This document shows, one piece after another, positions 187 to 47,072 of a stretch of DNA of 48,966 nucleotides. The translations under genes were made by a program, and so were the position numbers. This stretch comes from Chromatiales bacterium (lineage in GTDB: Bacteria > Pseudomonadota > Gammaproteobacteria > Chromatiales > Chromatiaceae): positions 1-48,966 of the forward strand of contig JANTHH010000001.1 in assembly GCA_024762485.1 (NCBI GenBank), given 5' to 3'. The notes under the pieces were generated by a model. That model was given only the letters and a program-made list of their open reading frames with translations. It was not told the origin of the DNA and made no database searches. Each line of letters begins with the position of its first letter. Within the stretch, counting starts at the first letter, position 1.

Positions 187-1466
187 CCCGCTCCCACGAC
201 CTGTTCGAAAAAGCCCGGCGCCACATACCCGGCGGCGTGAATTCCCCGGTGCGGGCCTTCAAGGGCGTGGGTGGCGACCCGGTATTCATCGACCACGCCG
301 AGGGGGCCTACCTGTTCGACAGTGATGGCCAGCTGTACATCGACTATGTGGGATCCTGGGGGCCGATGATCCTCGGTCACACCCACCCCGAGGTGATCGC
401 CGCGGTAAAGGCCGCCGCCGACAAGGGCCTGTCCTTCGGCGCCCCCACCGAGGTGGAAATCCGCATGGCCGACCGGGTGTGCGACATCATGCCCGGCATG
501 GACATGGTACGCATGGTCTCATCAGGCACCGAGGCCACCATGAGCGCCATCCGCCTGGCGCGCGGCTATACCGGCCGCGACAAGATCGTCAAGTTCGAGG
601 GCTGCTACCACGGCCACGCCGACTCGCTGCTGGTGAAGGCCGGTTCCGGCATGCTGACCCTCGGCGAGCCGTCCTCGCCCGGCGTGCCCGCGTCGCTGGC
701 CGAGCATACCCTCACCCTGAACTACAATGACGCCGAGCAGGTGAAGGAGACCTTCGCCAGGCTCGGCGAACAGATCGCCTGCATCATCGTCGAGCCGGTG
801 GCCGGCAACATGAACTGCATCCCGCCCGTGCCCGGCTTCCTCGAGACCCTGCGCGCACAGTGCGACGAGCACGGCGCGGTGCTGATCTTCGACGAGGTGA
901 TGACCGGCTTCCGGGTCTCGCTCACCGGCGCCCAGGGCCACTATGGCATCCAGCCGGACCTGACCACCCTGGGCAAGGTCATCGGCGGCGGCATGCCGGT
1001 GGGTGCCTTCGGCGGCAAGGCCGAGATCATGCAGAAGATCGCCCCGCTCGGCCCCGTCTACCAGGCCGGCACCCTGTCCGGCAATCCGGTGGCCATGGCC
1101 GCGGGCCTGAAGACCCTGGAACTGATCTCCGCCCCCGGCTTCTACGCAGACCTGTCCAGCAAGGTCGACAGGCTGGTCGCTGGCGTCATGCAGGCCGCCG
1201 CCGATGCCGGCGTCCCCTTGGCGGAAAACCACGTCGGCGGCATGTTCGGCTTCTTCTTCACCGGGGCTGGACCAGTCACCGACTTCGCCGGTGCCACCGC
1301 CTGCGACCAGGAACAGTTCAGACACTTTTTCCACGGCATGCTGGACCGTGGCGTGTACCTGGCGCCTTCCGCCTTCGAGGCCGGCTTCGTCTCCGCGGCC
1401 CACAGCGGCAAGGACCTCGACGCCACCATCACCGCCGCCAGCGAGGTCTTCGCCGATCTAGGCTGA
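183..1466 (+). CDS. hemL: Glutamate-1-semialdehyde 2,1-aminomutase
   Basis: 427-aa ORF with the typical HemL N-terminus ([25 protein letters not shown]) and class-III aminotransferase body ([28 protein letters not shown]). Confidence 0.97.
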
Positions 1467-3863
1467 TGTCTCCGGCGGCGCATCAAAGGCATACTCCTCC
1501 GCCCCGAGGGGCGGCTGTACGAAATAGCCCTGCACGAGGTCCACGCCACAGCGATACAGCTCGCTCAGGACCTCTGCCGTCTCCACGTAGCCGGCGACGA
1601 CCCGCGGCCCGGCCTTCTGGATGCGCGCCACCACCTCGCCCACATATTCGACCTGTGCCGCATCCTGCGCCAAGGCACGGGTCAGCGCCTGTGGCAGCTT
1701 GACCAGGGCCGGCCGCAGGGTGTGAATGATCTGGCTTCCCCGCTTGCTGGGGATCACGCCCTCCACCATCAACTGACAGCCCAGCGCGGTGAGTGGGCGA
1801 AGGCCTTCGGCCATCGCCTCCAACGGGACATCCTGTCCCGGTCTGTCGAAGGAGAGACCGATCAGGCTGGCCGGCAGGCCGTGCCTGTTCAACGCGGCAA
1901 CGAGCCAATCAGGGAATGCGGGATCCAGCAGACTCTGCTGCGAAATCTTCATGAACAGCTGGCCCTGCCATCCCTTGCCGACATGGGGTGCAGCCCACGC
2001 CAGCACGCCCTCGATGACATGCTGATCGAGGGTCTCGGCCAGGCCGGCGTAGGGCATGAGGCGCATGAAATCCGATGGCGGAGCACCCTCGCCGGGGACA
2101 TCCGCATCGCACAGGCGACTGCGCACTTCGATGCAGTCATTGGCCCCGCTGACCAGATCGACCATGGGCTGCATCAGCAGACGCAGACGCCGCCGCGTCT
2201 CGTCGAGGTCGGCCTTCAGTTGCGCCGCCCGGTTTTTATTCGTGGCCACCCACAGCCTGCGCGCGGCCTCCAGACCCTGGGCCACCACCCGCCCGCCACC
2301 GGCCTTCTGTGCCTTGCGGCAGGCCAGGCCGGCGCGCCGGATCTGTTCCACCACCGAAAGCTGAGGCTCGCACATCACCAGACCACCTGAATTGCCCGGC
2401 CAGTGATGATCTACCTTGCAGATATCCTGTGCCAGCAGGCGTGCCTGCCCGAACCCGAGGTGGCGCATCACCATGGCGACACCGTGGGCAAAGCGCAGCG
2501 GGTGGGCATCCGGATATCGCCTGGCCAGGTTCGACATCAGATGCTCAAGTGCCGATTCCAGGGCACTGAGATCCTCGCTGCTGGCAGGGATATCCGGTTC
2601 CAGGTAGAGCAGTGCGCCACCCTCTTCGGCCGTCGCCACCTCGAGCAGCTTAAGCAGGTTTTCGTTCGCCAGCAGGTCCATGTGATGAAAGACACCCGCA
2701 GCGGCCTCCCGGCGTGCCCGCGCACGCTGCAGGTGCAGACTGACGGCATCCACCAGCAGGGCCGGGGAGATCGGCTTCTGCAGGAAGTCATCGCCCCCGG
2801 ACTTCAATGCCGCAAACTGGCGCGCCGGGCTCTGCTCACGGGAGAGAAAGAGGACGGGGACATCGTCCCAGGCCGGGAACTGCCGGATCAATGCGGTCAG
2901 CTCCTGGCCATCCACCTCCGGCATGTAGAGATCCATGAGGATCAGGTCCGGCCGGTGACGCTGCAGCGACTGTTCGATGGCCTCCGGCTTCAGCAGCCCC
3001 TCGACGTCGAAACCGGCCTGCCTGAGCACCCCCTGCAGATAGGCCGACTGGTCCGCATCATCCTCAACCACCAGGATCCGGGCGCCGCCGGTCACCGGAT
3101 CGAGCAACAGCAGGAGACGCTCCAGCAGCAGGTGCATGTCCACGGGCTTGGTGAGGTAGGCATCACCGCCAGCGCGGATCGCCCGCAGACGACTCTGCAT
3201 GTCCCGCCGGGCGGAGAGGAAGATCACCGGCAAGGGCAGGCGATTGGCCCGGCGCATGGCGGCAATCGCATCGATGCCGCCAAACTCGCCCTCCGGCAGC
3301 ATGACGTCCATGATCACCGCTGCCGGATTCTCTGCCTCCACCGCCGCAGGCAGCAACGCTGCCGAATCCATCACCCGGACCCGGTAACCCGCCAACTTCA
3401 GTTGCGCTGTCAGGTAGTCGGCCATGTCGGCATCGTCATCTACCAGGTACAGCAGATGACCTCTCTGCTCCCCCGGCGCCGCTGGCCGGTTGGTGGCAGC
3501 ACCCACTGTCGTGGAAGGCTCGTGCAGCGGGTGGGTGACCGCGTCCTCCAGGCGGCCGAAGAGGATCCCCAGCCTGCCGACGATCTCCGGGTCGATCCCG
3601 CCGGACACCGGCATGAGCTCTGCCAGCGCCTGTTGCAATTGATCGGCAGCCGCACTGATCTCCAGGAAGCGGAAGCTGCCGCTGGCACCCACCAGACTGT
3701 GCAGGTGCCGCATCAATGCATCGAGGTCCCCGCTCTCGGCAACGCCTTCCGCCACCTGCCGCCAGCAACGGCGGATCTCATCGAGCCGTTGCGGCAGCCC
3801 GTCGATGAATCGCTGACGTACCGCCGCCAGCTTGCCGTTCCCGGGAATTCCCTGTTCCTGCAT
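1458..3863 (-). CDS. Multidomain signalling protein: Hpt - REC - REC - degenerate GGDEF-like - degenerate EAL-like
   Basis: 801 aa. The N-terminal Hpt has [10 protein letters not shown]. Two receivers carry intact Asp/Lys pockets (VIMDVMLP...YLTKP and LILMDLYMP...FLQKP). The GGDEF-shaped region has RFAHGVAMV where RxGGDEF is expected. The EAL-shaped C-terminus (QPMV..IEVRSRL...VAGYVET...QGYF) has the DDFGTG position reading VEGVIP. An RBS (GGAAGGA) lies 6 nt upstream of the ATG at 3863. Confidence 0.85.
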
Positions 3864-3878: not shown

Positions 3879-5408
3879 CTAGCCCAGTTCACTCAGGGTC
3901 TTGAGCAACACAGCGGGATCGATGGGCTTCGCCAGATAGGCATCGACGCCGACCGCAGCCGCCTGCGCCTGCTCGGCCTGCCCCGCCGCCGCAGACAGTA
4001 TGATCACCGGCCCCTCGTACCCCTCATCTCGGGCCGCCTGCACGACCTGCGGTCCCATCATGTCGGGCAGATGCAGATCCATGAGCAGCAGGTCCGGTTT
4101 CGAGGCGGTCAGGGCCGCCAGCGCCATCCCGCCATCCGCTGCAAAGGCGAGGTCGTAACCACTGTCTTCGAGATAAGCCCCGAGCAGTGCCCGGATATCG
4201 GGGTCATCCTCGACGATCAGCAGATGCCGCCTGCCGGTCGTCCGGGCCCGTGTGACCGGTATCCGATGGGACTCGGGGGCATCGATGTCGAAGACGAAGC
4301 GGCTGCCCTTGCCCGGTGTGCTCTCCAGCTGCATCCGCCCCCCCATGCGTTCAACCAGTGCCAGGGTGATGGCGAGACCCAGCCCGGCGCCATGCCTGCG
4401 AATGGCAGGCTGCCCGGCCTGTCTGAAAGGCTCGAAGATACGTCGTTGCTCCGCCACCGGGATCCCGCTGCCGGTATCGCTGACCGCGACGTTGAGCCGG
4501 GCGTCCTGCCAATCGAGTGTCACCCGGATCTCGCCCTGTTGCGTGAACTTGAATGCGTTGCCGGTGAGATTGACCAGGATCTGCCGCAGGCGCATGCCAT
4601 CGAGCAGCAGGCAGGCCGGCAGTCGGGGGCTGACCTCGACGGTGAAGCCGATACCCGATTGCCGGGCAGTCCGCTCGAACATCTGGCGAATGACCCCGGC
4701 GATCTCACGCACGTCGGTCTCTGTGGGATTCAGCTGGAGTTCATCGTTCTCCAGCTTCGCCTGGTCGAGCAGATTATCAACCAGGCTCAGCAGGTGGCGT
4801 GCCGCGCCTTCCATGGCGTCGAGATAGGCCGGCTTCATCTCGCCCTGATGGCGAAGATCGAGATATCCCAGGATGCTGGTGAGCGGCGTGCGGAATTCGT
4901 GGGACATGTTGCCGATGAACAGGCTCTTCAGTTGGCCGGCCTCCTCCAGCCTGCGATGACTCTCCTGCAGACGCACCTGGCTCTGTTCCAGTTCGGCCAG
5001 CAGTTTTTCCCGCTGCCGGTGCAGCAGCGCCAATTCATTGGCCGCCTGTTGCCGCTCCCGCCGCTGGGCCTGTTCATCCGAGGCATCGAGCAGCACGATG
5101 CCGAGTCCTGCAGACAGCGGCACCAGGTGGACATGGGCCGTGTGCGCCACCCCCGGACGGGTCTCCATGCTGAGGAACTCCAGCACCAGCGGCTCGACGA
5201 GTCCTGCAGCCGTGCCACTGAGCCAGGGCAGGACATTGTCGAGCCGTTCCCCCTCCACGAGGTCCGCCAGGCCGTAAAAGTCCAGGTCGCCGGAGGCGCC
5301 GGTGAGCCGCTCTTGCGCATCGGCCACCAGGCACAACGGGTGCACGCGGTGAAACAACTGGCGGTCCAGGTAGTGCTGCAGTTCCTGCGGCAGGCGGTGC
5401 TCTTTCAT
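3879..5408 (-). CDS. Soluble hybrid sensor histidine kinase (unassigned N-terminal domain - coiled coil - HisKA - HATPase_c - REC)
   Basis: I chose the ATG at 5406-5408 (MKEHRL...) rather than the 618-aa ORF-track start, because it overlaps the stop of the upstream GTPase gene as ATGA. H-box SHEFRTPL, N-box NLTGNAFKFT, G1 DTGSGI, G2 GAGLGLAI. The C-terminal receiver has LLLMDLHLP...YLAKP. No hydrophobic TM segment is present. Confidence 0.9.
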   Translation of the reverse strand: MKEHRLPQELQHYLDRQLFHRVHPLCLVADAQERLTGASGDLDFYGLADLVEGERLDNVLPWLSGTAAGLVEPLVLEFLSMETRPGVAHTAHVHLVPLSAGLGIVLLDASDEQAQRRERQQAANELALLHRQREKLLAELEQSQVRLQESHRRLEEAGQLKSLFIGNMSHEFRTPLTSILGYLDLRHQGEMKPAYLDAMEGAARHLLSLVDNLLDQAKLENDELQLNPTETDVREIAGVIRQMFERTARQSGIGFTVEVSPRLPACLLLDGMRLRQILVNLTGNAFKFTQQGEIRVTLDWQDARLNVAVSDTGSGIPVAEQRRIFEPFRQAGQPAIRRHGAGLGLAITLALVERMGGRMQLESTPGKGSRFVFDIDAPESHRIPVTRARTTGRRHLLIVEDDPDIRALLGAYLEDSGYDLAFAADGGMALAALTASKPDLLLMDLHLPDMMGPQVVQAARDEGYEGPVIILSAAAGQAEQAQAAAVGVDAYLAKPIDPAVLLKTLSELG

Positions 5409-5906: not shown

Positions 5907-7880
5907 TCAGCCCGACCCGCCCTGTGTGTCGCCCTCCGGCGAGAGGAAACGGATATGCACATCCGCCCGCCGGCTGGCCAGTTCGGGCACGCCACGGCCC
6001 CGCTTCGGCACCGCCGTTTCAATGAGGAACAGTGATGCCGGCAGCCCCTCGCCAACCAGCAGGTCAACCAGCCGCCGGGCCCGTGCCGCGGCGAGCTGGC
6101 GGTTGTACTGGGGCGTGCCAACAGCATCGGTACGGCCTGTGACCACCACCTTGAAGGGCCGCTGCAGCCGCTCCGCCAAGTGCTGGATCTCGCGCAGGCT
6201 GTCGGCCAGCGACGACATGCCCGCCAGCTGGCCGGGATCGGGATCAATGCCATTGGGGAAGCCGATACTCACCTTGTCGACCTCGGCCACCAGGGTGTCG
6301 AGCCGGCGGGATTCACGGACCACCAGCGCCTTGTCGTCGAGCCCGGCAAAGCCGGGCAACTGCTCCAGCGGAAGGATCGACAGGCGCTGCTTCCAGTCCA
6401 GCGGGGCGTCACCCTCGAGCATGATCCAGCCATCCTTCACGCGCAGAGTGACCCCTTCCGGAGGATCGATCATGGCCCTCGCCTGCTGCAGCAAATAGCT
6501 GTCGCGGTCGGTCAGCCGACTGTCATCGAAGGCGTTGATGCCGGGGATCGCCGGTGCCAGCAGCCGGGCACGCTCGATCCAGCGGGCATCCGGGACGCCT
6601 TCGGCCAGCAGTACGCCATCCGCGCCCAGTCTCAGATTGACCGTGGGCGGCGGCGCGAGGATACGCTGTGCCCGGCGCAGGGCGAACGGGGGCGAGAGAT
6701 CCTGGTAGGGCCGCCAGTTGAACGTCACCGCATCCGCCGCTAGGCCACTGCCAGCTACCAGCTCGTCGAGCGGTGGCGCGAGGGGGTCCCGCAGGCCCTC
6801 GATATGCAGCCGGCCATCCGTCCGGTCGACACGTGTCACCACCACGCCGGGACGGGACTCGAGCTGTTGCAACAGTGCCGCCTCCCGTCCCCGGCGTTCA
6901 CTGGCGGCACGCTGCTCGTCCCAGGCCTGGTAACCGAACCATGACAGCAGCAGCACGACAAACGCCAGCAGCCACCACAGAAAGGCGCGGCGCGGTCTCT
7001 TGTCCGTCTCACGCTCCTCCGACACCAGGCAGCGGCGCAGCTCCGGCTGCACCGCCAGCAGCGAATCGCTGTCGCCGTCGAAGGCCTTTATCGCAGCAGC
7101 AAATTTCTCGTGCACGTCCTCGAGGATGCCCATCAACCGCTGCCGCAGGTCGGGTGGCGGCATACCTCGGATGACGCAGGCCATCAGGGCGTAGGGTCCG
7201 TGCAACAGCAAGACGGTGTGCTCGCCCACGTCCACCGTATCCAGGGTGCCCTCGCCGCCCGCGACGAAGGCATCCTTGACGAAGTCCTCGATGGCAGTGA
7301 GCATCGCGGAGACCGCGTCCGCGTCCCGGTCCAGGGCCGTGGGGTCGGCCACATGCTGCATCAGCAGACCACTGCCGGGCTGGATCAGGAATACCTGTTC
7401 CACCCGGTAGATGAGGGTGTGGCGCAACACCACGGCAGAGAACGGCACGCCGGCACGCATGGCCTCGATGCGCCAGGCGATGCCTCGGGGTGAAAGGCTG
7501 TGCTCCAGTGCCTTGTTGAGTGCATCGACGATGCCGCGAAGTGATTCGGCGATGGCGCGCCGGATGGCGGGACCCATGACCGGGAACAGGGCATCGGCCA
7601 GGGAATGGGGGTCGGCCTGGACGGAGCGATGCAGACATTCGGCCACTGGCGCCTCGAGGGCGCTGATCAGGGCGTCGCCCTGCCGTAGTTGCAGCTGTAC
7701 CGCATCCGGCAGCACCTGCGATACGTCCTGGGCTCGCAGGGGCAGATCATCGATACGCTGACGCAGCTGCTCGAGGTCCTTCTGCTCGGGCTCGAACAAA
7801 AGGCGCTTCAGGGTATCGAGTGCGTCCGCGTCCGTGGTGGACGGCCGATCATCCCGGGGTTTCGGTCCCTGCTGATTCAC
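5907..7880 (-). CDS. Bitopic membrane protein: cytoplasmic Roadblock/LC7-like region - 1 TM - periplasmic BON-like repeats - OmpA_C-type peptidoglycan-binding domain
   Basis: 657 aa with a GTG start. It has a single hydrophobic helix (AFLWWLLAFVVLLLSWFGYQAW, aa ~299-320). The C-terminus (VVVTGRTDAVGTPQYNRQLAAARARRLVDLLV...RRADVHI) matches the OmpA/MotB peptidoglycan-binding signature (TD..G....N..LS..RA). The cytoplasmic aa ~155-260 has a Roadblock-like pattern (details in the findings). Confidence 0.8.
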   Translation of the reverse strand: MNQQGPKPRDDRPSTTDADALDTLKRLLFEPEQKDLEQLRQRIDDLPLRAQDVSQVLPDAVQLQLRQGDALISALEAPVAECLHRSVQADPHSLADALFPVMGPAIRRAIAESLRGIVDALNKALEHSLSPRGIAWRIEAMRAGVPFSAVVLRHTLIYRVEQVFLIQPGSGLLMQHVADPTALDRDADAVSAMLTAIEDFVKDAFVAGGEGTLDTVDVGEHTVLLLHGPYALMACVIRGMPPPDLRQRLMGILEDVHEKFAAAIKAFDGDSDSLLAVQPELRRCLVSEERETDKRPRRAFLWWLLAFVVLLLSWFGYQAWDEQRAASERRGREAALLQQLESRPGVVVTRVDRTDGRLHIEGLRDPLAPPLDELVAGSGLAADAVTFNWRPYQDLSPPFALRRAQRILAPPPTVNLRLGADGVLLAEGVPDARWIERARLLAPAIPGINAFDDSRLTDRDSYLLQQARAMIDPPEGVTLRVKDGWIMLEGDAPLDWKQRLSILPLEQLPGFAGLDDKALVVRESRRLDTLVAEVDKVSIGFPNGIDPDPGQLAGMSSLADSLREIQHLAERLQRPFKVVVTGRTDAVGTPQYNRQLAAARARRLVDLLVGEGLPASLFLIETAVPKRGRGVPELASRRADVHIRFLSPEGDTQGGSG

Positions 7881-7910: not shown

Positions 7911-8489
7911 TCAGGATTTGTCCATGCCTTCCATGTCGAATGAGCCCTTGAGCCGCAGTGCCACCTCGCCAAGCATGTCGGCAAGACTCTCGCGGCTCAG
8001 TTTGTCGTCATGCAGTTGCTGCGTTTCCTTATCGAGGGAATCGAGCAGTTGCTCGCCCTGCTTGCGCATCGCGGCCTGCAGCACATCGACCTGGTCGTGC
8101 AGTTCCATGCGCAGGTCCGTGAGCTGTTTGCCGGCATCCTTGTGCACCTCGTCAAGGCGTTTCGCCAGTGAATCGTCCGCCTGCTTGAGCACATCCGAGA
8201 GGCTGCCCAGCGCCTGGGCCGCGGCCTTTTTTTCTGTCTCCAGTGCATTGCCGAGCCGTTCGACCTGGGTGTTCAGCAGATCTTCCAGCCGCTTGAAGCG
8301 TGCATCGAGATCATCCTGCAGCTGTACCCTGTCCCGCTCGAGACGCTCCTCCAGCCGCTGGAAGCGACGATCGAAGTCCCGCATCTGTCCACCGAACAGA
8401 ATTTCTCGAATCTGATCAACATTGTCAGACGTCGCTTCGGTGGCTGCCTCTACCCCCGCGACCTTCTTGGATGCCTTGTTGCCTGCCAT
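7911..8489 (-). CDS. Acidic coiled-coil protein, function unknown (first gene of the operon)
   Basis: 192 aa with an ATG preceded by AAGGAG. Long heptad-like E/R/L/Q/D-rich sequence with no TM or signal peptide. It lies 30 nt upstream of the next gene on the same strand. Confidence 0.6.
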   Translation of the reverse strand: MAGNKASKKVAGVEAATEATSDNVDQIREILFGGQMRDFDRRFQRLEERLERDRVQLQDDLDARFKRLEDLLNTQVERLGNALETEKKAAAQALGSLSDVLKQADDSLAKRLDEVHKDAGKQLTDLRMELHDQVDVLQAAMRKQGEQLLDSLDKETQQLHDDKLSRESLADMLGEVALRLKGSFDMEGMDKS

Positions 8490-8671
8490 CTCGTGGACTC
8501 CTTGCCCGGGCTATTGCTTCAAACTGTGACCTGATTCTATATCTTGCAATTGCCAGACCCTAGCACTTTAACTACTTGAAATCTCCAATCCGGCGACTGG
8601 GAAATGTCGTCAATACAGATGCCTGCAGCGACCGATGGATACCATTTCGGGCGCTAACTGCAGACACCAAA

Positions 8672-8700
8672 TAAAAAAGACCCCGCCAGATGGCAGGGTC
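8672..8700 (-). terminator. Rho-independent terminator after the lipoprotein gene
   Basis: Minus-strand RNA reads GACCCUGCC-AUCU-GGCGGGGUC: a 9-bp stem including one G.U pair, followed by UUUUUUAU. It lies 32 nt downstream of the stop at 8732. Confidence 0.72.
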
Positions 8701-8731
8701 TCCTATTACGTACCGCAGTGATGTCAGGCGA

Positions 8732-9814
8732 TCAACCCGCCGACATGACACCCAGTTTTTTCAGCGTCTCAAGGGTCAGCTGACCGACAGCCAGCCCGTT
8801 CTTGCGCTGATAGGCCTTGACGGCAGCCATGGTCTGGCGACCAACGATGCCATCGATCGGACCGGGGTCGAAACCGTCATCCTTCAATGCCACCTGTAGT
8901 CGCTTCACCACGTCCTTGGTGGTATTGGTTTCACAGAGGATTGGGCGCCACTCAAGCTCGCCCTCGCTGACCAGCTGGCGTTCCTTAATGGTGCGATACT
9001 CCGCCGGGATATCAAATTGCTGCTCGCTGGCATCCTTGACCATCTTGCGCACCCTGATGGTCTTGTATTCCGCCGGAACCACCTCGGTAGCCGTCTTGGC
9101 AGACTCGACCACCACGCGCTTGCGCACGACCTTGTACTCGGCCGGAATGGCCACCTTGCGGACACCGGCCGGCTTGACCAGTACACGCTTGGCAACGTTC
9201 TTGTACTCGGCCGGGACCTCCACCAGACACATGATCTCGCCGGTGGCATCATCGATTTTCTCGATCGGACCGCGACCCTTCTTCCAGGTGGTATAGGCAT
9301 CGCGCACGAGCACCTTCTCGTACTCGGTCTCATACACCGCGGGCTCCTCGATCAGCTTGCTGGAGGCCTCCTTGACCAGCACGCGCTCTTCCACCCAGTC
9401 GTATTTCGCCGGGATGACCTTGAGCACTTCGGTGGGCTCCTTCACCAGCACCTTCTCTTCTACCCATTCATAGACGGCGGGCACCGTCTGGATACGCTTG
9501 CCGGCCTCCTTCACCAGGACGGTTTTCTCGATATCCTTATATTGTGCAGGCGCGAATACCCGGGCATAACACTCGCCGGGCTGTGCCTTCGGCGGCAACA
9601 GGTTGTTCCCCGCATCACCCTCACCCGCAGACTGTGCATCACGGGTGGACATCTCACCCCTGAGGCCTTGCAGCGATTGCTTCAGACTTGCGTTCTCCCG
9701 CTCCGTTTCCTTCAAGCGCATTTCCAGATCATCACGTGACTGCATACCGCTACAGCCCGACAGACCAATGATCGCGGCGCTCGCCAACAATCCAAATACT
9801 ATTCTTTTGTTCAT
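8732..9814 (-). CDS. Lipoprotein with eight 23-aa tandem repeats and a C-terminal PG_binding_1-type peptidoglycan-binding domain
   Basis: Starts at ATG 9812-9814 (MNKRIVFGLLASAAIIGLSGC) with lipobox LSGC and a GGAGAG RBS. The repeats follow [VI]PA.Y..V...VLVK.A. The C-terminus (VVKRLQVALKDDGFDPGPIDGIVGRQTMAAVKAYQRKNGL) is a typical PG_binding_1 motif. Confidence 0.85.
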   Translation of the reverse strand: MNKRIVFGLLASAAIIGLSGCSGMQSRDDLEMRLKETERENASLKQSLQGLRGEMSTRDAQSAGEGDAGNNLLPPKAQPGECYARVFAPAQYKDIEKTVLVKEAGKRIQTVPAVYEWVEEKVLVKEPTEVLKVIPAKYDWVEERVLVKEASSKLIEEPAVYETEYEKVLVRDAYTTWKKGRGPIEKIDDATGEIMCLVEVPAEYKNVAKRVLVKPAGVRKVAIPAEYKVVRKRVVVESAKTATEVVPAEYKTIRVRKMVKDASEQQFDIPAEYRTIKERQLVSEGELEWRPILCETNTTKDVVKRLQVALKDDGFDPGPIDGIVGRQTMAAVKAYQRKNGLAVGQLTLETLKKLGVMSAG

Positions 9815-10033
9815 CGGATCCTCTCCAAATTTTATGAACGTCTTTCCGAACCCGTAACTCAGCCACCCTGTCTGCTCAGCCCGACAGCCCCTGCTCGAAT
9901 CACCCTCGCCATCTGTCACGACCAATCAATCAGACGCTTGGTATTTCACTTTGTTTTCAACAACTAAGCGCATTACCCGGAACATCTGACCGACGACTGA
10001 CCGCACCTGAAAACCGTGAGTCGACCAACTATC

Positions 10034-10199: not shown

Positions 10200-10526
10200 T
10201 CAGGTGGGGGAGCCGGTGTCCTCGGGAGGGATGATCTCTATCGATGCGAGATGTTGATCGAGCCGCTGCAGCTGTTGATCGATCACCGCATCGTCCGACG
10301 CCTGCGCGGCCTGCTCCAGGGCAAGACCGATGGCTGACAGGTGATCAAAACCATAGCTGCCCGCGACACCCTTGAGGTTGTGAGCCAGCTGCCACAGGCG
10401 TCGATGGTCCCGGGCCTTCGCGGCAGCACGAATCACGTCGAGTTCCCGGCGGCGGTTCTCAAGGAAGGCCGGCACCAAGTCAGCGATGCCGGCCGCGATC
10501 CTTATCCGGTGAGGCTGCCCGCTCAC
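10200..10526 (-). CDS. Stand-alone histidine phosphotransfer (Hpt) protein
   Basis: 108 aa with the Hpt signature AHNLKGVAGSYGF. Its GTG start overlaps the stop of the upstream activator gene (GTGA). Confidence 0.8.
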   Translation of the reverse strand: MSGQPHRIRIAAGIADLVPAFLENRRRELDVIRAAAKARDHRRLWQLAHNLKGVAGSYGFDHLSAIGLALEQAAQASDDAVIDQQLQRLDQHLASIEIIPPEDTGSPT

Positions 10527-11893
10527 TGGCCGGCCGACTCGGCCTCGGCCCGGAAGCTCGCCGCATCCAGACCATGGCGCCCCAGCAGCTTGTAGAATTC
10601 GGTGCGATTACGCCCGGCCATGCGCGCGGCAGTACTGACATTGCCATTGGTGGTGCGCAACAGACCGACCAGGTAGCGGTGTTCGAAGGCATGCTTCGCC
10701 TCGTCGAGCGACTGCACCTCACCCACCTGGTCCGCCAGGGCCTCGACGACCAGCTGGTCGGGGATCACCTCGGAGGTGCTCAGCACCACGCAGCGTTCAA
10801 CCAGGTTGCGCAGCTGCCGCACGTTGCCCGGCAGGGCGGCCTGCAGCAGGTACTCCTGCCCCTTGGGGGAGAAGCGCCGTCGCGCCGAGGGCTTTGTCCC
10901 CGCCAGGGACGCGAGGAAATGCTCGATCAGCAAGGGGATGTCTTCCCGGCGATCACGCAGCGGGGGTATCAGCAGCGGCACCACGTTCAGCCGGTAGTAC
11001 AGGTCTTCGCGGAATTCATGGCTGCACACCATGGACAACAGGTCATGGTGGGTGGCGGAGATGATCCGCACATCGACAGGCACCGCCTTCAGCGCACCCA
11101 CCGGGCGCACCTGGAAATCCTGCAGCACCCTCAGCAGCTTGGCCTGCAGGTTGGCGGGCATGTCGCCGATCTCATCCAGGAACAGGGTGCCCTTGTCCGC
11201 CGCCTGAAACAGGCCGACATGGCGGCTGTTTGCGCCAGTGAACGCACCCTTCTCATGGCCGAACAACTCGGACTCAAGCAGGTGTTCCGGCATGGCACTG
11301 CAGTTGATGCTGACAAAAGGTCCCTGGCGACGCGGGCTGGCCCTGTGGATCGCCTTGGCCAGCTCCTCCTTGCCGGTACCGGTCTCTCCGCTCAGCAGCA
11401 GCGTGGTATCGCCCATCGCCACCAGACGGGCCCGCTCCACCAGCTCCACCATGGCCGCGGAGCGGTAGACCAGCCCCTCACCGAAGGCCTGGACGGCCGC
11501 ACCCTGCTTGCCTCCGGCACGCTGCAGTGCGCGCTCCACCGCAGCGACCAGGTCCGGCTCCCGAATGGGCTTGGTGATGAAATCCGATACCCCCAGGTGT
11601 GCCGCCTGGATGGCATCACGCACCTCTGCCTGGCCGCTGATCAGGATCACCGGCAACACCGCATCCAGCTGGTGGATGGCCGACAACAGGCGCATGCCAT
11701 CGAGTTCTTCCATCATCAGGTCGCTGACCACCAGATCCGGGCGGCGCCGCTCCATCACCGCCAGTGCCTGACGCCCGCCAGCAGCGGCCGTCACCTGCAT
11801 GCCGGCGAGTTGCAGCCAGCGTTGCGTCAGCGCCAGATGATCGGGGTCATCGTCGACGACAAGGATGTGGGCGCCTTTGGCATGGTCGGACAT
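10523..11893 (-). CDS. Sigma-54-dependent response regulator (REC - AAA+ - Fis-type HTH), NtrC/LuxO class
   Basis: Receiver ILVVDDDPD...VVSDLMM...ITKP. Walker A GETGTGKE, GAFTGA loop, Walker B LFLDEIGDM. The C-terminal HTH is NVSTAARMAGRNRTEFYKLL. I preferred the ATG at 11893 (AGGAAA RBS) over the TTG at 11917. Confidence 0.93.
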   Translation of the reverse strand: MSDHAKGAHILVVDDDPDHLALTQRWLQLAGMQVTAAAGGRQALAVMERRRPDLVVSDLMMEELDGMRLLSAIHQLDAVLPVILISGQAEVRDAIQAAHLGVSDFITKPIREPDLVAAVERALQRAGGKQGAAVQAFGEGLVYRSAAMVELVERARLVAMGDTTLLLSGETGTGKEELAKAIHRASPRRQGPFVSINCSAMPEHLLESELFGHEKGAFTGANSRHVGLFQAADKGTLFLDEIGDMPANLQAKLLRVLQDFQVRPVGALKAVPVDVRIISATHHDLLSMVCSHEFREDLYYRLNVVPLLIPPLRDRREDIPLLIEHFLASLAGTKPSARRRFSPKGQEYLLQAALPGNVRQLRNLVERCVVLSTSEVIPDQLVVEALADQVGEVQSLDEAKHAFEHRYLVGLLRTTNGNVSTAARMAGRNRTEFYKLLGRHGLDAASFRAEAESAGQ

Positions 11894-11920
11894 CGTGGGG
11901 TTTCCTGGCCTGTTCAAGGA

Positions 11921-11948
11921 AAAACTGTCGTGACCAGACGACAGTTTT
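11921..11948. repeat. Perfect 11-bp inverted repeat AAAACTGTCGT-N6-ACGACAGTTTT in the divergent intergenic region
   Basis: Read directly from the sequence. It lies 28 nt upstream of the activator ATG and ~150-175 nt upstream of the plus-strand sigma-54-like promoter. Confidence 0.5.
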
Positions 11949-12095
11949 TAAATTTCGCGCAGCATGCAATTGCTCGTGCCTGCGGCCCGATCAATCACCT
12001 GAACACCATGCCCCAACAAAACACGACACACAACACCCTGTTACACATAGCTTTTTCGAAGATCAATGACATACGAACCCGCATCCCATGATAAT

Positions 12096-12110
12096 TGGCA
12101 CGCAATTCGC
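12096..12110 (+). promoter_or_regulatory. Near-consensus sigma-54 promoter upstream of the MscS-family gene
   Basis: TGGCAC-GCAAT-TCGC has correct GG/GC spacing and one mismatch in the -12 box (TCGC instead of TTGC). It lies ~70 nt upstream of the ATG at 12180. Confidence 0.45.
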
Positions 12111-12179
12111 TGTTGGGACATGTGGCATGCAAACATCTCTGAACACGTTACCAACCAACTAACAACGAGGATCAATGAA

Positions 12180-13010
12180 ATGGACATCGCAGGATTTGAC
12201 ATCAACCACCTTATAGACATCTACCTGATTCCCTGGGGCATCAAAATCGTCACCGCCCTGGCGGTCTTCATCATCGGCCGCTGGATCGCCAAGAAGCTGG
12301 TCAGCGTGCTGAAGAAGGTCATGGCCAAGGGCTCCGTTGACGAGATGCTGAGCGCCTTCATCGGCAACATCGTCTATGCCCTGCTGCTGGTGGTGATCGT
12401 GCTGGCCGCGCTGGAACAGCTCGGCGTCAACACCACCTCGGCACTGGCCATACTCGGTGCTGCCGGCCTGGCCGTCGGTCTGGCACTGCAGAGTTCGCTG
12501 TCCAACTTCGCCGCCGGCGTCATGCTGATCATGTTCCGCCCCTTCCAGAAGGGTGACTTCGTCGAGGCCGCCGGACAGAGTGGTGTGGTCGAGGAGGTGC
12601 AGATCTTCAATACCACCATGAAGACCGGCGACAACCGCCAGATCATCATCCCCAACGGTCAGATCTACGGCGGCACCATCGTCAACTATTCCGCCAAGGA
12701 TACCCGTCGCATCGACCTGGTGATCGGCATCGGCTATGACGACGACATCGCCAAGGCCAAGGAAATCCTTGCCGACCTGATGGTGCAGGAGAACCGCATC
12801 CTCGCCGACCCGGCACCCGCCATCGCACTGGGCGAACTGGGCGACAGCAGCGTCAACTTCAATGTACGCCCCTGGGTCGCCTCGGGCGACTACTGGCCGG
12901 TGCGCGGTGACCTGCTGGAGCGGATCAAGCTCGCCTTCGATGCGGCCGGCATCTCGATCCCCTACCCGCAGCAGGATGTGCACATGTACGAAGAGAAAAA
13001 GATTGCCTGA
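12180..13010 (+). CDS. Small-conductance mechanosensitive channel, MscS family
   Basis: 276 aa from the ATG at 12180 (RBS GAGGA). Three TM helices are followed by the MscS beta-domain pattern (FRPFQKGDFVE...GVVEEVQIFNTTMKTGDNRQIIIPNGQI). Confidence 0.9.
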   Translation: MDIAGFDINHLIDIYLIPWGIKIVTALAVFIIGRWIAKKLVSVLKKVMAKGSVDEMLSAFIGNIVYALLLVVIVLAALEQLGVNTTSALAILGAAGLAVGLALQSSLSNFAAGVMLIMFRPFQKGDFVEAAGQSGVVEEVQIFNTTMKTGDNRQIIIPNGQIYGGTIVNYSAKDTRRIDLVIGIGYDDDIAKAKEILADLMVQENRILADPAPAIALGELGDSSVNFNVRPWVASGDYWPVRGDLLERIKLAFDAAGISIPYPQQDVHMYEEKKIA

Positions 13011-13129: not shown

Positions 13130-14401
13130 ATGAATGAACTGATGCAGCAGATACTCCAGTGGGTGCAGGCCCATCCGGTATGGGCCGGCGCGGTGGTCTG
13201 CCTGATTGCCTTTGCCGAGTCGGTGGCGATCATCGGCATCCTGGTACCCGGCGTGGTGATCCTGTTCGGGGTCGGCGCGCTGATCGCCGTCGGCGCGCTG
13301 GACTTCTGGACCATGTGCGCCTGGGCGGTGGCCGGCGCGGTGGCCGGCGATGGCCTCAGCTTCTGGCTGGGCCGTCATTATCACCAGCAACTGCAGCATC
13401 TCTGGCCCTTCTCGCGCCACCCGCAGATGCTGCATAAAGGCATCGCGTTTTTCCATCGCAATGGCGGCGTGAGCGTGGTGATCGGCCGCTTTTTCGGCCC
13501 GGTGCGTGCCACCATCCCCTTTGTCGCCGGCATGCTGGAGATGAAACCCAGCCATTTCCTCGCCGCCAACGTCGGCTCCGCCCTGCTGTGGGCGCCGGCC
13601 TATCTGCTGCCGGGAATGGCGCTGGGCGCCTCACTGGAGGCCGCCTCGGCGGTGGCGCTGCGCCTGGTGATCCTGCTGCTGGGTCTGCTCGGCAGTGTCT
13701 GGCTGCTGGAACGCAGCCTGCGCTGGATCGGCCGACGCCTGGGACGGGGCATCGCCTGGGGACTGCTGCTGGTGCTGCTGGGACTGCCCATCATGCTCGG
13801 CGGCGGCCAGACGCTGAACCGTCTCTGGCATGCGCTCGAGGGACCGCCCGAAACCGGCGAACTGGCCATGGACACGCACCAGTGGTGGCGCTCGGGCTGG
13901 CAAGACCTGCCGGCACGACGCCAGGGACTGGCCGGCAACGCCGAGACCCTGAATCTCCAGTACGGCGGTGAGCTGGCGCGACTGCAGTCCCTGTTAAAGG
14001 CGCGCGGCTGGCAGACCGCCAGCCGGCCTGGCGTGGCGGAGGTGACCCGCTGGCTGTCTCCCGAGGCGCCGCTGAGCGAACTGCCGGTGTTGCCGCGCCT
14101 GCATGGCAACCGCTTCGAGCACCTGATCCTGGTTCGCAATCAGGGCACACAACGGGAGGTGCTGCGAATCTGGCCGGCGGGCCGGCTCAGCGATGGCGTT
14201 CCGCTATGGCTTGGCTCGGTGCACTGGCAGGCCCGCCAGTACCGGCTGTGGACGCTGTTCAGTTACGCCGTGGCCCGCAATAGTGAAGAGGCGGTGCGCC
14301 GGCTGTGGGAGGAACTGGTGGACGCCCCGCTGTGGCTGCGCCGGGTCGATGGCCGGCTGCTGCTGCGCCAGCCAGCCGGGTCCACCATCAGCCGGGAGTG
14401 A
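13130..14401 (+). CDS. DedA-family membrane protein fused to a C-terminal LssY-like domain
   Basis: The N-terminus has the DedA/SNARE-associated pattern (AFAESVAIIGILVPG...GRHY...GRFFGPVRATIPFVAG). A ~200-aa extra C-terminal domain follows further TM helices. Confidence 0.75.
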   Translation: MNELMQQILQWVQAHPVWAGAVVCLIAFAESVAIIGILVPGVVILFGVGALIAVGALDFWTMCAWAVAGAVAGDGLSFWLGRHYHQQLQHLWPFSRHPQMLHKGIAFFHRNGGVSVVIGRFFGPVRATIPFVAGMLEMKPSHFLAANVGSALLWAPAYLLPGMALGASLEAASAVALRLVILLLGLLGSVWLLERSLRWIGRRLGRGIAWGLLLVLLGLPIMLGGGQTLNRLWHALEGPPETGELAMDTHQWWRSGWQDLPARRQGLAGNAETLNLQYGGELARLQSLLKARGWQTASRPGVAEVTRWLSPEAPLSELPVLPRLHGNRFEHLILVRNQGTQREVLRIWPAGRLSDGVPLWLGSVHWQARQYRLWTLFSYAVARNSEEAVRRLWEELVDAPLWLRRVDGRLLLRQPAGSTISRE

Positions 14402-36747: not shown

Positions 36748-38171
36748 GGTTTGTGATCCGGCACGTAGAACACCGCCTCGTGCTCGATCACCGGCAGTGC
36801 CGGGTCATCGGGTACCGCGCGTATCCGATAGGGACGGGTGCGGCCATCGAACACCTTTGGCGCGTACTTGACCAGGGCGCGGACCCGCAGGTGTTGTCCA
36901 GGCGCCAGCTTAAGGGTCTCGAATGGTCCCATGTCCAGTTCGGCACCCGGCAGCCCCTCGAGTTCGAAATGCAGCACCAGCGGCAGCGTCAGCTTGTTGT
37001 TGAGCTTGATCTCGTAGCTGTTCTGGATGCGTCCGTCGGACAGCTGCACAAAGATCGGCTGGCGTACCTGTGCAACGGTCAGGTCATAGGGGGCCTGCTT
37101 GGACATGTTGTAGATCAGTGCGCCAAGGATGAACAGCAGCATCATCCCGTAACCGATCACCTTCGGCCGCAGGATCTTCGTCGGCTTGCCCTCCTCCAGT
37201 TCCTTCTCGGAGGTATAGCGGATCAGGCCGCGCTCCCAGCCCAGCGAATCCATGATGGTGTCGCAGGCATCGATGCACAGGGCGCAGGAGATGCACTGCA
37301 TCTGCAGTCCGTTACGGATGTCGATGCCCACCGGGCAGACCTGCACGCAGTAACCACAGTCGATACAGTCACCGACGCCCTTTTCGGCACGCTCTTCGCG
37401 TGTCTTGTAGCCTTTGCCAAGGCGGTGGCGCCCGGCCGTCCCCTCACCCCGGTGCTCGTCGTAGGAGACGATCAGGGTATCCTTGTCGAACATCGCGCTC
37501 TGGAATCGGGCATAGGGACACATGTAGGTACACACCTGCTCTCGTGCCAGGCCGGCCATGACATAGGTGGTGGCCGTGAGAAACAGCGCCGTGGCATAGG
37601 CGGCGAAGGGTGCCTGGCCGGTGAAGAACTCCACCACCAGTTTCGGCGCCTCACCCCAGTAGAGGACGAAGGTCAGACCGGTGGCGAAGGCCACGAGCAG
37701 CCACAACAGGTGCGTCAGACCCAGCTTGATGGCCTTCTCCGCATTCATCGGCTGCTTGGCGAGACGGATACGTGCCGGCCGCTCACCCTGCACCAGCCGT
37801 TCGATGAAGATAAACACGTCGGTCCAGAGGGTCTGGAAACAGAAATAGCCGCAGAACACCCGCCCCGCCACCCCGGTGACGAAGAACAGCATGAAGGCGG
37901 CGATCATGAGAAAGCCGGCGAGCCAGAAGATGTCCTGTGGGTGCACCACCAGATCAAACAAGTAGAACTTGCGGCCGACGATATCGAACAACACCGCCTG
38001 ACTCGGCGCGTTGGGACGCTCCCAGGGGATCCAGGGCAGCAGGAAGTAGACCGCGTATGCGGTCAGCAGGATGGCCCACTTGATGTTACGGAAACGGCCC
38101 TTTACCGACCGCGGATAGATCGGAATCCGCGTCTGGTAGAGCTGGGGCTCCTGATCTTGGGTATTGCTCAT
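36744..38171 (-). CDS. ccoG: cbb3 oxidase accessory 4Fe-4S protein CcoG/FixG
   Basis: 475 aa with N-terminal TM helices, two ferredoxin motifs (CIDCGYCVQVCP and CISCALCIDACD), and a C-terminal IPT-like domain. Confidence 0.93.
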   Translation of the reverse strand: MSNTQDQEPQLYQTRIPIYPRSVKGRFRNIKWAILLTAYAVYFLLPWIPWERPNAPSQAVLFDIVGRKFYLFDLVVHPQDIFWLAGFLMIAAFMLFFVTGVAGRVFCGYFCFQTLWTDVFIFIERLVQGERPARIRLAKQPMNAEKAIKLGLTHLLWLLVAFATGLTFVLYWGEAPKLVVEFFTGQAPFAAYATALFLTATTYVMAGLAREQVCTYMCPYARFQSAMFDKDTLIVSYDEHRGEGTAGRHRLGKGYKTREERAEKGVGDCIDCGYCVQVCPVGIDIRNGLQMQCISCALCIDACDTIMDSLGWERGLIRYTSEKELEEGKPTKILRPKVIGYGMMLLFILGALIYNMSKQAPYDLTVAQVRQPIFVQLSDGRIQNSYEIKLNNKLTLPLVLHFELEGLPGAELDMGPFETLKLAPGQHLRVRALVKYAPKVFDGRTRPYRIRAVPDDPALPVIEHEAVFYVPDHKP

Positions 38172-38200
38172 CGTTGCTGCTGATTCCTGTTGTCAGAAGA

Positions 38201-38229
38201 CAGAAAAGGCCGCAAGCGGCCTTTTCTGT
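38201..38229 (-). terminator. Hairpin between ccoP and ccoG (terminator/attenuator)
   Basis: CAGAAAAGGCCG-cttg-CGGCCTTTTCTG forms a 12-bp stem on the minus strand. The U-run lies partly inside the stem. Confidence 0.5.
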
Positions 38230-38271
38230 CAGTCGACGGTGACGCTCCGGCCGTGACCGGATGTCAGCCCG

Positions 38272-39192
38272 TCATTGACCGCCGCCGAGTCCGTGTACGT
38301 AAACCGTCAGCAGCTTGATCTCGGTATCGCTCAGGCGTCCGGACCAGCTGGGCATCTCGCGCTTGACGCCGTTGCGGATCACGCCCTTGACCGCCTCGAG
38401 TTTCGCATCCAGGCCATCGGCACCAGGCACGTCCGCCACGGTCCATACCGCATCGGTCAGATTGGCAGAGCCTTGCGAATAGAGGCCGGTCGCCCCCGTG
38501 GTGTGGCAGTAATAACAGCCGGCGGCCTCGCTCTTGAAGATCTTCTCGCCGGCAGCCGCCTTGTTGCTGTCGACGGTATCCTCAGAGAAGCTCAGGACGT
38601 AGTTCGCCAAGGCATCGATCTGCGCGTCATCGAGGACCGTGCCGAAAGCGGGCATGTAGCCGAGGCGGCCATGACGGATCGTCTGCTCGATGTTCTCGAC
38701 CTTGCCACCCCACAGCCAGGCATCATCACCGAGGTTGGGATACTGGCCGATCATCGCCGGGGTGCCGCCCACGCCATGACAGGCAGCGCAGTTGTCCCCG
38801 AACAGCCCCTTGGCCATGGAGTTGACGAAGGCGGTCATGTCCGGATCGTTGACGATCTCCTGGTAACTCGCCTGGGAAACCTTGTCCAGATAGGCCTTCT
38901 GCTTCAGTGATTCCTCGCCGGTCTGCATCTCCTTGATCAGGCGCGCGCGGGTGTTCCAGTTCGTGGTGACCTCCTTCCCGTTCTCTTCGAAGGTGATGGT
39001 CTTGATGCCCGTGGTATAGCCCTTGCCGAGCGGCCAGGTGGGATAAAGCACCCAGTAGACAATCGCGAACACACAGCTCGCATAGAACGTCCACAACCAC
39101 CAGGTCGGGAGCGGGTTGTTGTATTCCTGGAGGTCACCATCCCAGGCATGGCCCGTTGTCTGGACCGCCTTGCCATGCTGTTGTTCAGCCAT
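38272..39192 (-). CDS. ccoP: cbb3-type cytochrome c oxidase subunit III (dihaem c)
   Basis: Starts MAEQQHGKAVQTTGHAWDGDLQEYNNPLPTWW. Two CxxCH motifs are present (CAACH and CYYCH). Confidence 0.93.
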   Translation of the reverse strand: MAEQQHGKAVQTTGHAWDGDLQEYNNPLPTWWLWTFYASCVFAIVYWVLYPTWPLGKGYTTGIKTITFEENGKEVTTNWNTRARLIKEMQTGEESLKQKAYLDKVSQASYQEIVNDPDMTAFVNSMAKGLFGDNCAACHGVGGTPAMIGQYPNLGDDAWLWGGKVENIEQTIRHGRLGYMPAFGTVLDDAQIDALANYVLSFSEDTVDSNKAAAGEKIFKSEAAGCYYCHTTGATGLYSQGSANLTDAVWTVADVPGADGLDAKLEAVKGVIRNGVKREMPSWSGRLSDTEIKLLTVYVHGLGGGQ

Positions 39193-39388
39193 TGTGTTTG
39201 CCCTTTTCGCTTTCTTTTGATTCCCGCTCGTCGTCCTGGAATGGGATGTCCTTGTAGGATTCAAAACGCGCCTTGCGCTTTTTGCCGGTGAAGACATACA
39301 GGACGATGGCCACGAAGGTGACGAAGAAGATCACCAACGCCAGAGGCTTGGTGTTCTCCATCTTCGAAAACCATTCGATCAGGTCCAT
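39185..39388 (-). CDS. ccoQ: cbb3-type cytochrome c oxidase subunit IV CcoQ
   Basis: Small single-TM protein (MDLIEWFSKMENTKPLALVIFFVTFVAIVLYVF) between ccoO and ccoP. Its 3' end overlaps ccoP by 8 nt. Confidence 0.8.
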   Translation of the reverse strand: MDLIEWFSKMENTKPLALVIFFVTFVAIVLYVFTGKKRKARFESYKDIPFQDDERESKESEKGKHNG

Positions 39389-39433
39389 CACGTCGGAAAT
39401 CCTCTGTTCACTTGGAATTCAACCGTTATCCGA

Positions 39434-40174
39434 TCAACGGAATTCGGCGAAATAACCCTCGTCGTACTTGCTGAAATCGACCATCGTTCCGAGCACCTGG
39501 AGATAGGCAACGAGGGCGTCCATTTCGGTCAAGCGCGCGCGATCACCATCGAAGTCCTCCGATTGCGCCTGCGCCAGCAGGTTCTCCTCCGCCTCGAGGA
39601 TGTTCAACTGGTCTGCAGTTTCCTTGCCGAACTTCTCGACATTCGCCTGGTACTCGGCGGTGGTCAATGAGTAGGGCACCCCTGTGACCTTGAGGGCACG
39701 CATGCGGTCAGCGATATCCGAATAGTCCAGGTCATTCTCAAGCAACCAGGGGTAGTTCGGCATGATGGACTCGGGCACCACCGAACGGGGGGCCTTCAGG
39801 TGCTGGACGTGCCACTGGTTGGAATATTTCTCGCCGACACGGGCAAGGTCCGGGCCGGTCCGTTTCGATCCCCACTGGAAGGGATGGTCGTACTGCGACT
39901 CCGCCGCCAACGAATAATGGCCATAGCGCATGTCCTCGTCGCGGAACGGACGAATCATCTGCGAGTGGCACAGATAGCAGCCTTCGCGGGTGTAAATGTC
40001 GCGTCCCTTCTGCTCCAGCGGGGTGTACGGACGTACACCCTCCACCTTCTCGATGGTCTCGTCGATATAGAACAGCGGGACGATCTCCACCAGACCACCG
40101 ATGCTGATGGCAATCATGGTGAGCACGATCATCAGGCCCGCATTGATTTCGATACTTTCGTGACTGAATTTCAT
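39434..40174 (-). CDS. ccoO: cbb3-type cytochrome c oxidase subunit II (monohaem c)
   Basis: 246 aa with an N-terminal TM anchor and [11 protein letters not shown]. Confidence 0.96.
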
Positions 40175-40185
40175 CTGGGACCCCG

Positions 40186-43929: not shown

Positions 43930-43936
43930 CCCGCCA

Positions 43937-44551: not shown

Positions 44552-44563
44552 GTTCTCACCTTC

Positions 44564-45295: not shown

Positions 45296-45358
45296 TCACT
45301 GCATCCTTCAGGGGCGGTTGATATAATCGGCACTCTTTTCGGCCATCGAGACATTTCC

Positions 45359-45604: not shown

Positions 45605-45617
45605 TCAACATCTGGCG

Positions 45618-46484: not shown

Positions 46485-46523
46485 AGCTCCCCCTCGTTAA
46501 AAAACGGTGTTGTTCCCAGTGGT

Positions 46524-47069: not shown

Positions 47070-47072
47070 CGC

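Follow-up and report, generated by a model that had tools for sequence, protein, structure and literature searches.

The question raised by this locus is whether a large envelope protein, encoded directly next to a small Ras-like GTPase, holds out a cytoplasmic platform on which that GTPase docks and is regulated. The locus lies within the first 48,966 nucleotides of contig JANTHH010000001.1 from a Chromatiales bacterium (Chromatiaceae; assembly GCA_024762485.1); this whole stretch is called the window below, and the envelope protein, of 657 amino acids (aa), is called the target. An earlier description made from the letters alone (the sequence-only reading) had proposed a Roadblock/LC7 (MglB)-like module at residues ~155-260 of the target, joined through one transmembrane helix (aa ~299-320) to three BON-like units and an OmpA_C domain, encoded adjacent to a GTPase, and had taken the arrangement to be undescribed. 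Translation of positions 7101-7418 on the reverse strand gives TLIYRVEQVFLIQPGSGLLMQHV...DADAVSAMLTAIEDFVKDAF...LDTVDVGEHTVLLLHGPYALMACVIRGMPPPDLRQRL; this corresponds to residues 155-260 of the 657-aa open reading frame (ORF) and matches the residues quoted there exactly. On balance we lean towards the view that the target is the envelope-spanning "DUFX:OmpA" subunit of a Group 1 Rup signalling module, with its cytoplasmic domain serving as a docking or regulatory platform for the GTPase Rup.

The module itself has been described before. Wuichet & Søgaard-Andersen (2014, Genome Biol Evol) defined the Group 1 Rup GTPases and a conserved neighbourhood consisting of a cytoplasmic coiled-coil protein (DUFY), DUFX:OmpA, a Rup lacking the glutamine of its G3 motif, and a histidine kinase or GGDEF/EAL protein with an invariant glutamine in its N-terminal region, for which action in trans was proposed (PMC4316618). 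Table S2 of that paper gives the order DUFY>DUFX:OmpA>Rup for Nostoc, Anabaena, Sorangium, Mesorhizobium loti, Alteromonas, Marinomonas and others, which refutes the idea that the arrangement was undescribed. All four features are found in the window, namely a GTPase without the G3 glutamine, a DUFX:OmpA gene, a coiled-coil gene and a kinase with an invariant glutamine. Since the defining features and the published gene order are all present, the locus belongs to the described module: we conclude that it is a further Group 1 Rup module, from an uncultured gammaproteobacterium, alike in gene order and content and without essential difference. Group 1 Rup proteins are the prokaryotic GTPases closest to eukaryotic Rab/Ras/Rho, and the 2014 study left DUFX without a fold and likened the system to the conservon by analogy only (PMC4316618). 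A literature search for later studies of the module, for mentions of its locus tags and for any assignment of a longin domain in bacteria gave nothing beyond that paper. As an ordinary member of the described neighbourhood, the locus gains its added value from a plausible, model-based fold for DUFX, which is what appears to be new here.

The target has a single hydrophobic segment by hydropathy, AFLWWLLAFVVLLLSWFGY, at aa 299-320. No signal-peptide-like segment was found at its N-terminus, and lysine and arginine (K/R) are richer on the N-terminal than on the C-terminal flank of the transmembrane helix in 34 of 40 homologues. Because the OmpA-like domain is C-terminal, the transmembrane helix is single, a signal peptide is lacking and the K/R bias has this direction, aa 1 to ~298 are cytoplasmic, which places the region in question inside the cell and not in the periplasm. 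An AlphaFold2 (AF2) model of the whole protein (40-sequence alignment; mean predicted local distance difference test score, pLDDT, 83.5) has the transmembrane helix running on into a long periplasmic helix, and the periplasmic modules are modelled as three units of ββαβ/αββαβ type. Foldseek with the full model matched these repeats to YscD, CdsD, BonA and OsmY, and Pfam BON was detected in some homologues. The C-terminal domain matched Pal, OmpA, MotB, YfiB and TagL in the same search; a full-length profile run against PDB sequences likewise found Pal, OmpA, MotB and YfiB (E down to 4.5e-11), through the OmpA-like part only. Pfam OmpA (PF00691) matches aa 562-618 at 29.4 bits (cutoff 27.2) and was found in 73 of 80 relatives, while the NCBIfam matches were to OmpA-type anchors only. 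The peptidoglycan-binding signature GRTD..G....N..LA..RA is present in the target and invariant across the family (G582, D585, G588, N593 and R600). The C-terminal domain is thus a predicted OmpA-like peptidoglycan binder, on which hidden Markov model match, modelled fold and conserved D...R residues agree. The one transmembrane helix, the three BON-like units and the OmpA_C domain of the sequence-only reading are in this way borne out. The N-terminal helical region (aa 17-143) is also conserved, with P100, P104, R107, I110, R137, E139 and R142 invariant in the family alignment.

Conservation within the target's family is highest in the cytoplasmic α/β domain. More than 1767 homologues of the target were found, and the domain family comprises 5391 clusters (50% identity) at E<=1e-3, 1604 of them at E<=1e-30. 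When aa 131-292 were modelled separately with AF2 (34 sequences), the model reached a pLDDT of 83 and a predicted template modelling score (pTM) of 0.76; its order of elements, α-α-β-β-α-β-β-β-α-α, agrees with that of the full-length run, so that two independent runs concur. As it is conserved across a large family and confidently predicted, the region at aa 155-260 is not a chance feature. Foldseek searches of PDB with the aa 131-292 model demonstrated that nearly all of the top 50 matches are longin or roadblock domains. The best match is to the longin chains of the Rab guanine nucleotide exchange factor (GEF) Mon1-Ccz1 (5ldd; E 1.2e-4), and other longin matches include AP σ-adaptin (9ddt_B; template modelling score, TM-score, 0.57 by query and 0.73 by target), Sec22b (1ifq; 0.58/0.72), Ykt6, VAMP7, COPI ζ/δ, TRAPP subunits and the SRX domain. 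Roadblock matches stand lower and include MglC (7ct3; E 3.9e-3), single chains of Ragulator-complex entries (5x6v_F, 7t3b_G) and of a GATOR1-Rag entry (6ces_A), and Ego3. The roadblock alignments span 91-111 columns (E 3e-3 to 5e-3), compared with 130-159 columns (E ~1e-4) for the longin domains, whose TM-scores are 0.5-0.73 with a root-mean-square deviation (rmsd) of 3-5 Å. Longin and Roadblock domains are seen as a single GTPase-binding fold in two circularly permuted forms (PMC3521125). The modelled domain combines the N-terminal helix typical of Roadblock with the two C-terminal helices typical of longin, and both the Roadblock order α-β-β-α-β-β-β and the longin order β-β-α-β-β-β-α-α are found in the prediction. 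We conclude that aa 147-282 are predicted to adopt a longin/roadblock-type α/β sandwich, and not an unrelated fold.

Searches at the sequence level gave a different picture of family membership. The Robl_LC7 family (PF03259) had no match in the whole protein at E<=1, in any of the 34 domain sequences at E<=10 or in any of 80 further members at E<=1. Apart from the weak match given below, no Pfam model matches the domain family across those 34 domain sequences and 80 further members, and when the target was scanned against Pfam, NCBIfam and PADLOC, nothing was returned for its cytoplasmic part. The domain profile run with hmmsearch against all PDB sequences produced chance matches alone (E>1). 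Aligned with hhalign to Myxococcus xanthus MglB, either alone (a query identical to PDB 6h5b_B) or as a 10-sequence profile, the domain profile yielded no alignment, at a probability of 1-1.6%, a comparison whose sensitivity is limited by the shallow MglB profile (homologues all >=76% identical). PF19036, Fuz_longin_1 (a MON1-type longin), weakly matched two of the 34 domain sequences (best E 0.012) and was not among the 25 most frequent families listed in the 80 others; this match was dropped as evidence, as it was not reproduced in the 80 additional members and is compatible with chance. Membership of the domain in the Roadblock/LC7 family is, on these sequence comparisons, not established. 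Of the earlier description as a Roadblock/LC7 (MglB)-like module, the superfold is therefore retained on the AF2 and Foldseek results, and the specific link to MglB and Robl_LC7 is not, longin domains matching better and the sequence match being absent.

The neighbouring gene is, as had been noted, that of a GTPase, and it belongs to the Ras family. Its ATG lies 1 nt past the stop codon of the target gene, to which it is translationally coupled, and its own stop overlaps the start of the kinase gene as ATGA. The GTPase motifs are G1 GDFSVGKT, G3 DLAGT (without Gln), G4 NKAD and G5 SAK, and they are conserved over 63 orthologues; G3 reads W-D-x-A-G followed by E/T/K/S, with Q in none of the 63. 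Phenylalanine occupies the position of Ras Gly12 (GDF[AG]VGKT) in 55 of 63 Rup sequences (GTPases of the window and of loci L004-L083). Loss of the G3 glutamine and a change at Gly12 would each cripple GTP hydrolysis in Ras. Together, the phenylalanine and the missing glutamine suggest an unusual catalytic or locked-switch mechanism for Rup. The kinase carries a QQ pair at aa 120-121, of which Q121 is kept in all 52 sequences and Q120 in 98%. This pair sits just before the coiled-coil linker to HisKA, within an N-terminal domain of ~150 aa (aa 1-150) that has no Pfam match. No membrane domain was detected in the kinase, which appears to be soluble.

These data bear on the proposal of a genuine MglB-type Roadblock/LC7 homologue that is hard-wired to peptidoglycan and acts as GTPase-activating protein (GAP) of the adjacent GTPase. 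A GTPase without its catalytic glutamine needs help in trans, the N-terminal helix directly before β1 gives the Roadblock order of elements, and Roadblock structures (7ct3, 6ces, 5x6v, 7t3b, Ego3) are among the Foldseek matches. However, those matches are weaker and shorter than the longin matches, Robl_LC7 went undetected in 115 members scanned with thresholds of E<=1 to 10, the hhalign probability against the MglB profile is 1%, and the invariant glutamine proposed to act in trans belongs to the kinase and not to the target (PMC4316618). We consider this explanation distinctly unlikely. The structural neighbours of the modelled domain (Mon1-Ccz1, TRAPP, Ragulator) tend to favour an anchor- or GEF-type platform over an MglB-type GAP.

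How consistently the GTPase accompanies the target was assessed with a domain-profile scan of one genome per species, which yielded 80 loci, 76 of them with enough downstream DNA to judge. The source taxa span at least five phyla and include Gammaproteobacteria (Chromatiales, Sedimenticolaceae, Methylococcales, Thiotrichales), Acidobacteriota, Bacteroidota/Rhodothermales, Gemmatimonadota and Verrucomicrobiota. In 57 of 76 loci (75%) the target gene is followed immediately by the GTPase gene, which lies elsewhere in the locus in another four. The coiled-coil gene is conserved upstream of the target in most of the related loci; 48 of the 76 combine it with a GTPase gene downstream, and 46 have coiled-coil, target, GTPase and kinase genes in exactly this order. 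Homologue loci from an exact-protein look-up have the same core gene order. The coiled-coil gene is found with the target alone in loci such as L032 and L037.

Several of the observations weigh against the platform interpretation. The Foldseek E-values are modest (~1e-4), the central helix DADAVSAMLTAIEDFVKDAF, which is the most conserved segment, has a pLDDT of only 55-69, and a sequence-level tie to Roadblock or longin families was not found by Pfam, PDB profile search or hhalign, so that the fold assignment is one of predicted structure only. Fifteen of the 76 loci are without GTPase or kinase within ~4 kb, though the coiled-coil and target genes are present, and the conserved residues of the domain are unchanged in these 15. 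Because the residues are kept without a nearby GTPase, the conserved surface may instead serve the coiled-coil partner or self-assembly. The similarity of the periplasmic modules to the ring-building motifs of YscD and CdsD points the same way.

The weak central helix and the absent sequence-level support would also fit a prediction artefact, with the region being another small α/β sandwich (e.g., a GAF/PAS-like ligand sensor) or partly membrane-associated. A few phytochrome GAF/PAS chains (9iuz_B, 9irk_A, 8u62_B) are indeed among the Foldseek matches, but with TM-scores of 0.29-0.35 and rmsd of 14-17 Å they fall well short of the longin matches; the agreement of the two AF2 runs and the pTM likewise argue against an artefact, which we regard as very improbable.

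The GTPase-less loci lend themselves to another explanation, namely that the fold is longin/roadblock-like but the domain, instead of regulating a GTPase, is a scaffold or dimerisation module that builds an envelope-spanning, peptidoglycan-anchored structure with the coiled-coil protein; GTPase and kinase would be an optional signalling add-on, in which the GTPase talks to the kinase and not to this domain. The coiled-coil protein and the target would then be the constant core, as the 15 loci suggest, and the ring-building resemblance would fit. Three copies of the domain are also present in a 2171-aa protein, P0241, in which Pfam detects neither a GTPase nor an OmpA domain. This protein is the best match of the domain profile and carries, besides the three copies (one at aa 669-800), CARDB, TPR and DUF5915; its architecture means that the domain also exists in quite a different setting. 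A fusion of the domain to a GTPase (Rosetta stone) was sought among the longest family members and none was found. Set against the scaffold explanation are the GTPase gene directly downstream and translationally coupled in three quarters of the loci, the recurrent use of longin and roadblock domains as GTPase platforms (PMC3521125), and the possibility that genomes with GTPase-less loci encode a GTPase elsewhere. We therefore judge it an unlikely explanation, yet a weightier one than an MglB-type GAP. The GTPase-less loci (L029, L032, L037, L044, L047, L049, L050, L052, L057-L059, L071, L072, L079 and L082) are mostly from Thiotrichales, with targets often of 900-1500 aa. The next gene downstream in L032, a transglutaminase/DUF2126 gene, lies on the opposite strand.

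Under the platform interpretation, the longin/roadblock-like domain, probably dimeric, would form a membrane-fixed docking or regulatory platform for Rup, in parallel to MglB, Ragulator, Mon1-Ccz1 and TRAPP, and could act as an anchor, a GEF or a GAP. We infer both Rup binding and any GAP/GEF activity of the domain. The coiled-coil protein may be part of the platform, a possibility raised by the observation that some long homologues (P0031, P0035, P0097) have a coiled-coil insertion within their N-terminal helical region. The periplasmic BON/OmpA part would tie the platform to the cell wall or relay envelope status to it. The QQ domain of the kinase could read or complete the nucleotide state of Rup, which lacks a catalytic glutamine of its own, and kinase output may reach the σ54 regulator, the EAL phosphodiesterase or both by way of Hpt.

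A stronger claim is that DUFX is, though highly diverged, a genuine longin/roadblock homologue in bacteria, on which Rup docks directly and by which it is regulated at the inner membrane, and that the pairing of a Rab-like GTPase with a longin-type platform on a membrane pre-existed in bacteria, coupled in this case to the cell wall. We hold this to be possible and rather doubtful. If true, the pairing could have entered eukaryotes together with the GTPase and need not have been assembled later from archaeal MglB-type parts. Already under the platform interpretation, the longin/roadblock-GTPase partnership would extend to a bacterial family of >5000 clusters (50% identity) in at least five phyla, which would bear on the origin of eukaryotic GTPase regulation, and the module would gain a testable mechanism, in which a GTPase switch on an envelope-spanning, peptidoglycan-binding scaffold feeds a phosphorelay and a cyclic di-GMP (c-di-GMP) output. 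To our knowledge, no Group 1 Rup GTPase has been characterised so far.

Comparison with other systems sets the target apart in its architecture. As in MglA/MglB of Myxococcus and Thermus, a small GTPase gene adjoins the gene of a roadblock-superfold protein, and the resemblance in fold extends to the MglB paralogue MglC. MglB, however, is a soluble homodimer of ~160 aa that matches Robl_LC7 and has neither transmembrane helix nor periplasmic domains, all of which distinguishes it from the target, and MglA belongs to another GTPase family than Rup. The actinobacterial conservon (CvnA-D, Mfp) is likewise a four-gene module of membrane component, roadblock-type protein, small GTPase and histidine kinase (PMC4316618). 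There the membrane anchor is on the kinase, the Roadblock protein CvnB is free, a DUF742 protein is added and the GTPase is of MglA group 2, whereas here the longin/roadblock-like domain is itself anchored and coupled to predicted peptidoglycan binding, the kinase is apparently soluble and the GTPase is a Rup. The best structural matches are the eukaryotic longin platforms (Mon1-Ccz1, TRAPP, DENN, SRα SRX, AP σ/μ) and the Ragulator roadblock dimers, which have Rab/Ras-like partners. Like Ragulator, the platform formed by the target would be membrane-fixed; it differs from these platforms in being bacterial, in lacking detectable sequence homology and in having a transmembrane helix with predicted cell-wall binding as anchor instead of lipidation. 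The bitopic proteins MotB, TssL (TagL) and YscD-PrgH share with the target a cytoplasmic domain, a single transmembrane helix and periplasmic OmpA-like or ring-building modules, but the cytoplasmic domain of the target is different and a conserved transmembrane Asp is lacking. Pfam detected no MotA/ExbB-like or secretion-system genes in the cluster. A stator anchor of the MotB/ZorB/TolR type was rejected, given a transmembrane helix without Asp and the absence of a MotA-like gene from the cluster. A Zorya-like defence system was rejected as well: PADLOC had no match for the target, and the coiled-coil protein weakly matches only coiled-coil regions of ZorA and LeoA.

Table 1. Features of the target gene and of its cluster, as positions in the window.
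Feature	Position	Strand	Basis
Target gene (DUFX:OmpA), 657 aa, bitopic inner-membrane protein	5907-7880	-	ORF and translation, AF2, homologues
Cytoplasmic helical region, aa 17-143, conserved, four long helices, FPVMGPAIRR motif	7452-7832	-	AF2 (pLDDT 50-78)
Predicted longin/roadblock-type α/β domain, aa 147-282, α-β-β-α-β-β-β-α-α; contains 7101-7418	7035-7442	-	AF2 domain model, Foldseek against PDB
Single transmembrane helix, aa 299-320, N-terminus inside	6921-6986	-	Kyte-Doolittle peak 2.0, positive-inside bias
Three periplasmic BON/ring-building-motif-like modules, aa 346-515	6336-6845	-	AF2 secondary structure, Foldseek
Predicted OmpA-like peptidoglycan-binding domain, aa 519-645	5946-6326	-	Pfam OmpA, PDB profile matches, Foldseek
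Group 1 Rup small GTPase, 166 aa	5405-5905	-	Pfam Ras (E 3.7e-27), motifs, junction sequence
Hybrid histidine kinase, 509 aa: N-terminal domain with QQ, HisKA, HATPase, REC	3879-5408	-	Pfam
Hpt-REC-REC-EAL protein, 801 aa, downstream of kinase	1458-3863	-	Pfam
Coiled-coil cytoplasmic protein (DUFY), 192 aa, immediately upstream of target	7911-8489	-	Weak coiled-coil-type Pfam matches only
Lipoprotein with C-terminal PG_binding_1 domain	8732-9925	-	Pfam (E 1.7e-12)
Hpt protein	10200-10526	-	Pfam
σ54-activator response regulator	10523-11917	-	Pfam

To the Group 1 Rup core, the extended cluster of the window adds the Hpt protein, the σ54 regulator and the PG_binding_1 lipoprotein upstream, and the Hpt-REC-REC-EAL protein downstream of the kinase. 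The Hpt protein and σ54 regulator are likely phosphorelay partners of the hybrid kinase, and the Hpt-REC-REC-EAL protein is a possible c-di-GMP output. Very strongly conserved orthologues of the lipoprotein (phmmer E 1e-98 to 1e-138) adjoin the cluster in nine loci (including L002-L004, L006, L017-L019 and L046), and the lipoprotein would give one subclade of the module a second component that binds peptidoglycan. The lipoprotein has an internal repeated "VLVKE...PA.Y" motif. L002 and L003 likewise carry σ54 regulator and Hpt genes upstream, together with the lipoprotein gene, and L001 has a REC protein and a σ54 regulator upstream.

Long shadow ORFs overlap the target gene, e.g., at 7009-7638 (-) and 6180-6743 (+). 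The 505-aa ORF at 10574-12091 (+) is an antisense shadow of the σ54 regulator gene without a Pfam match, and was set aside as a high-GC artefact and not a gene. GC content is 0.56-0.59 at 8001-10000 and 38000-48966, against ~0.65 elsewhere, and the first dip corresponds to the lipoprotein gene and its flanks. Beyond the cluster lie genes for an MscS-family mechanosensitive channel and a DedA/VTT + LssY_C protein, at 12066-13010 (+) and 13130-14401 (+), and an MscL gene is near the cluster in L002 (13875-14327) and L003. These MscS, DedA/VTT and MscL neighbours may be there by chance, or they may hint at a link to osmotic or envelope stress.

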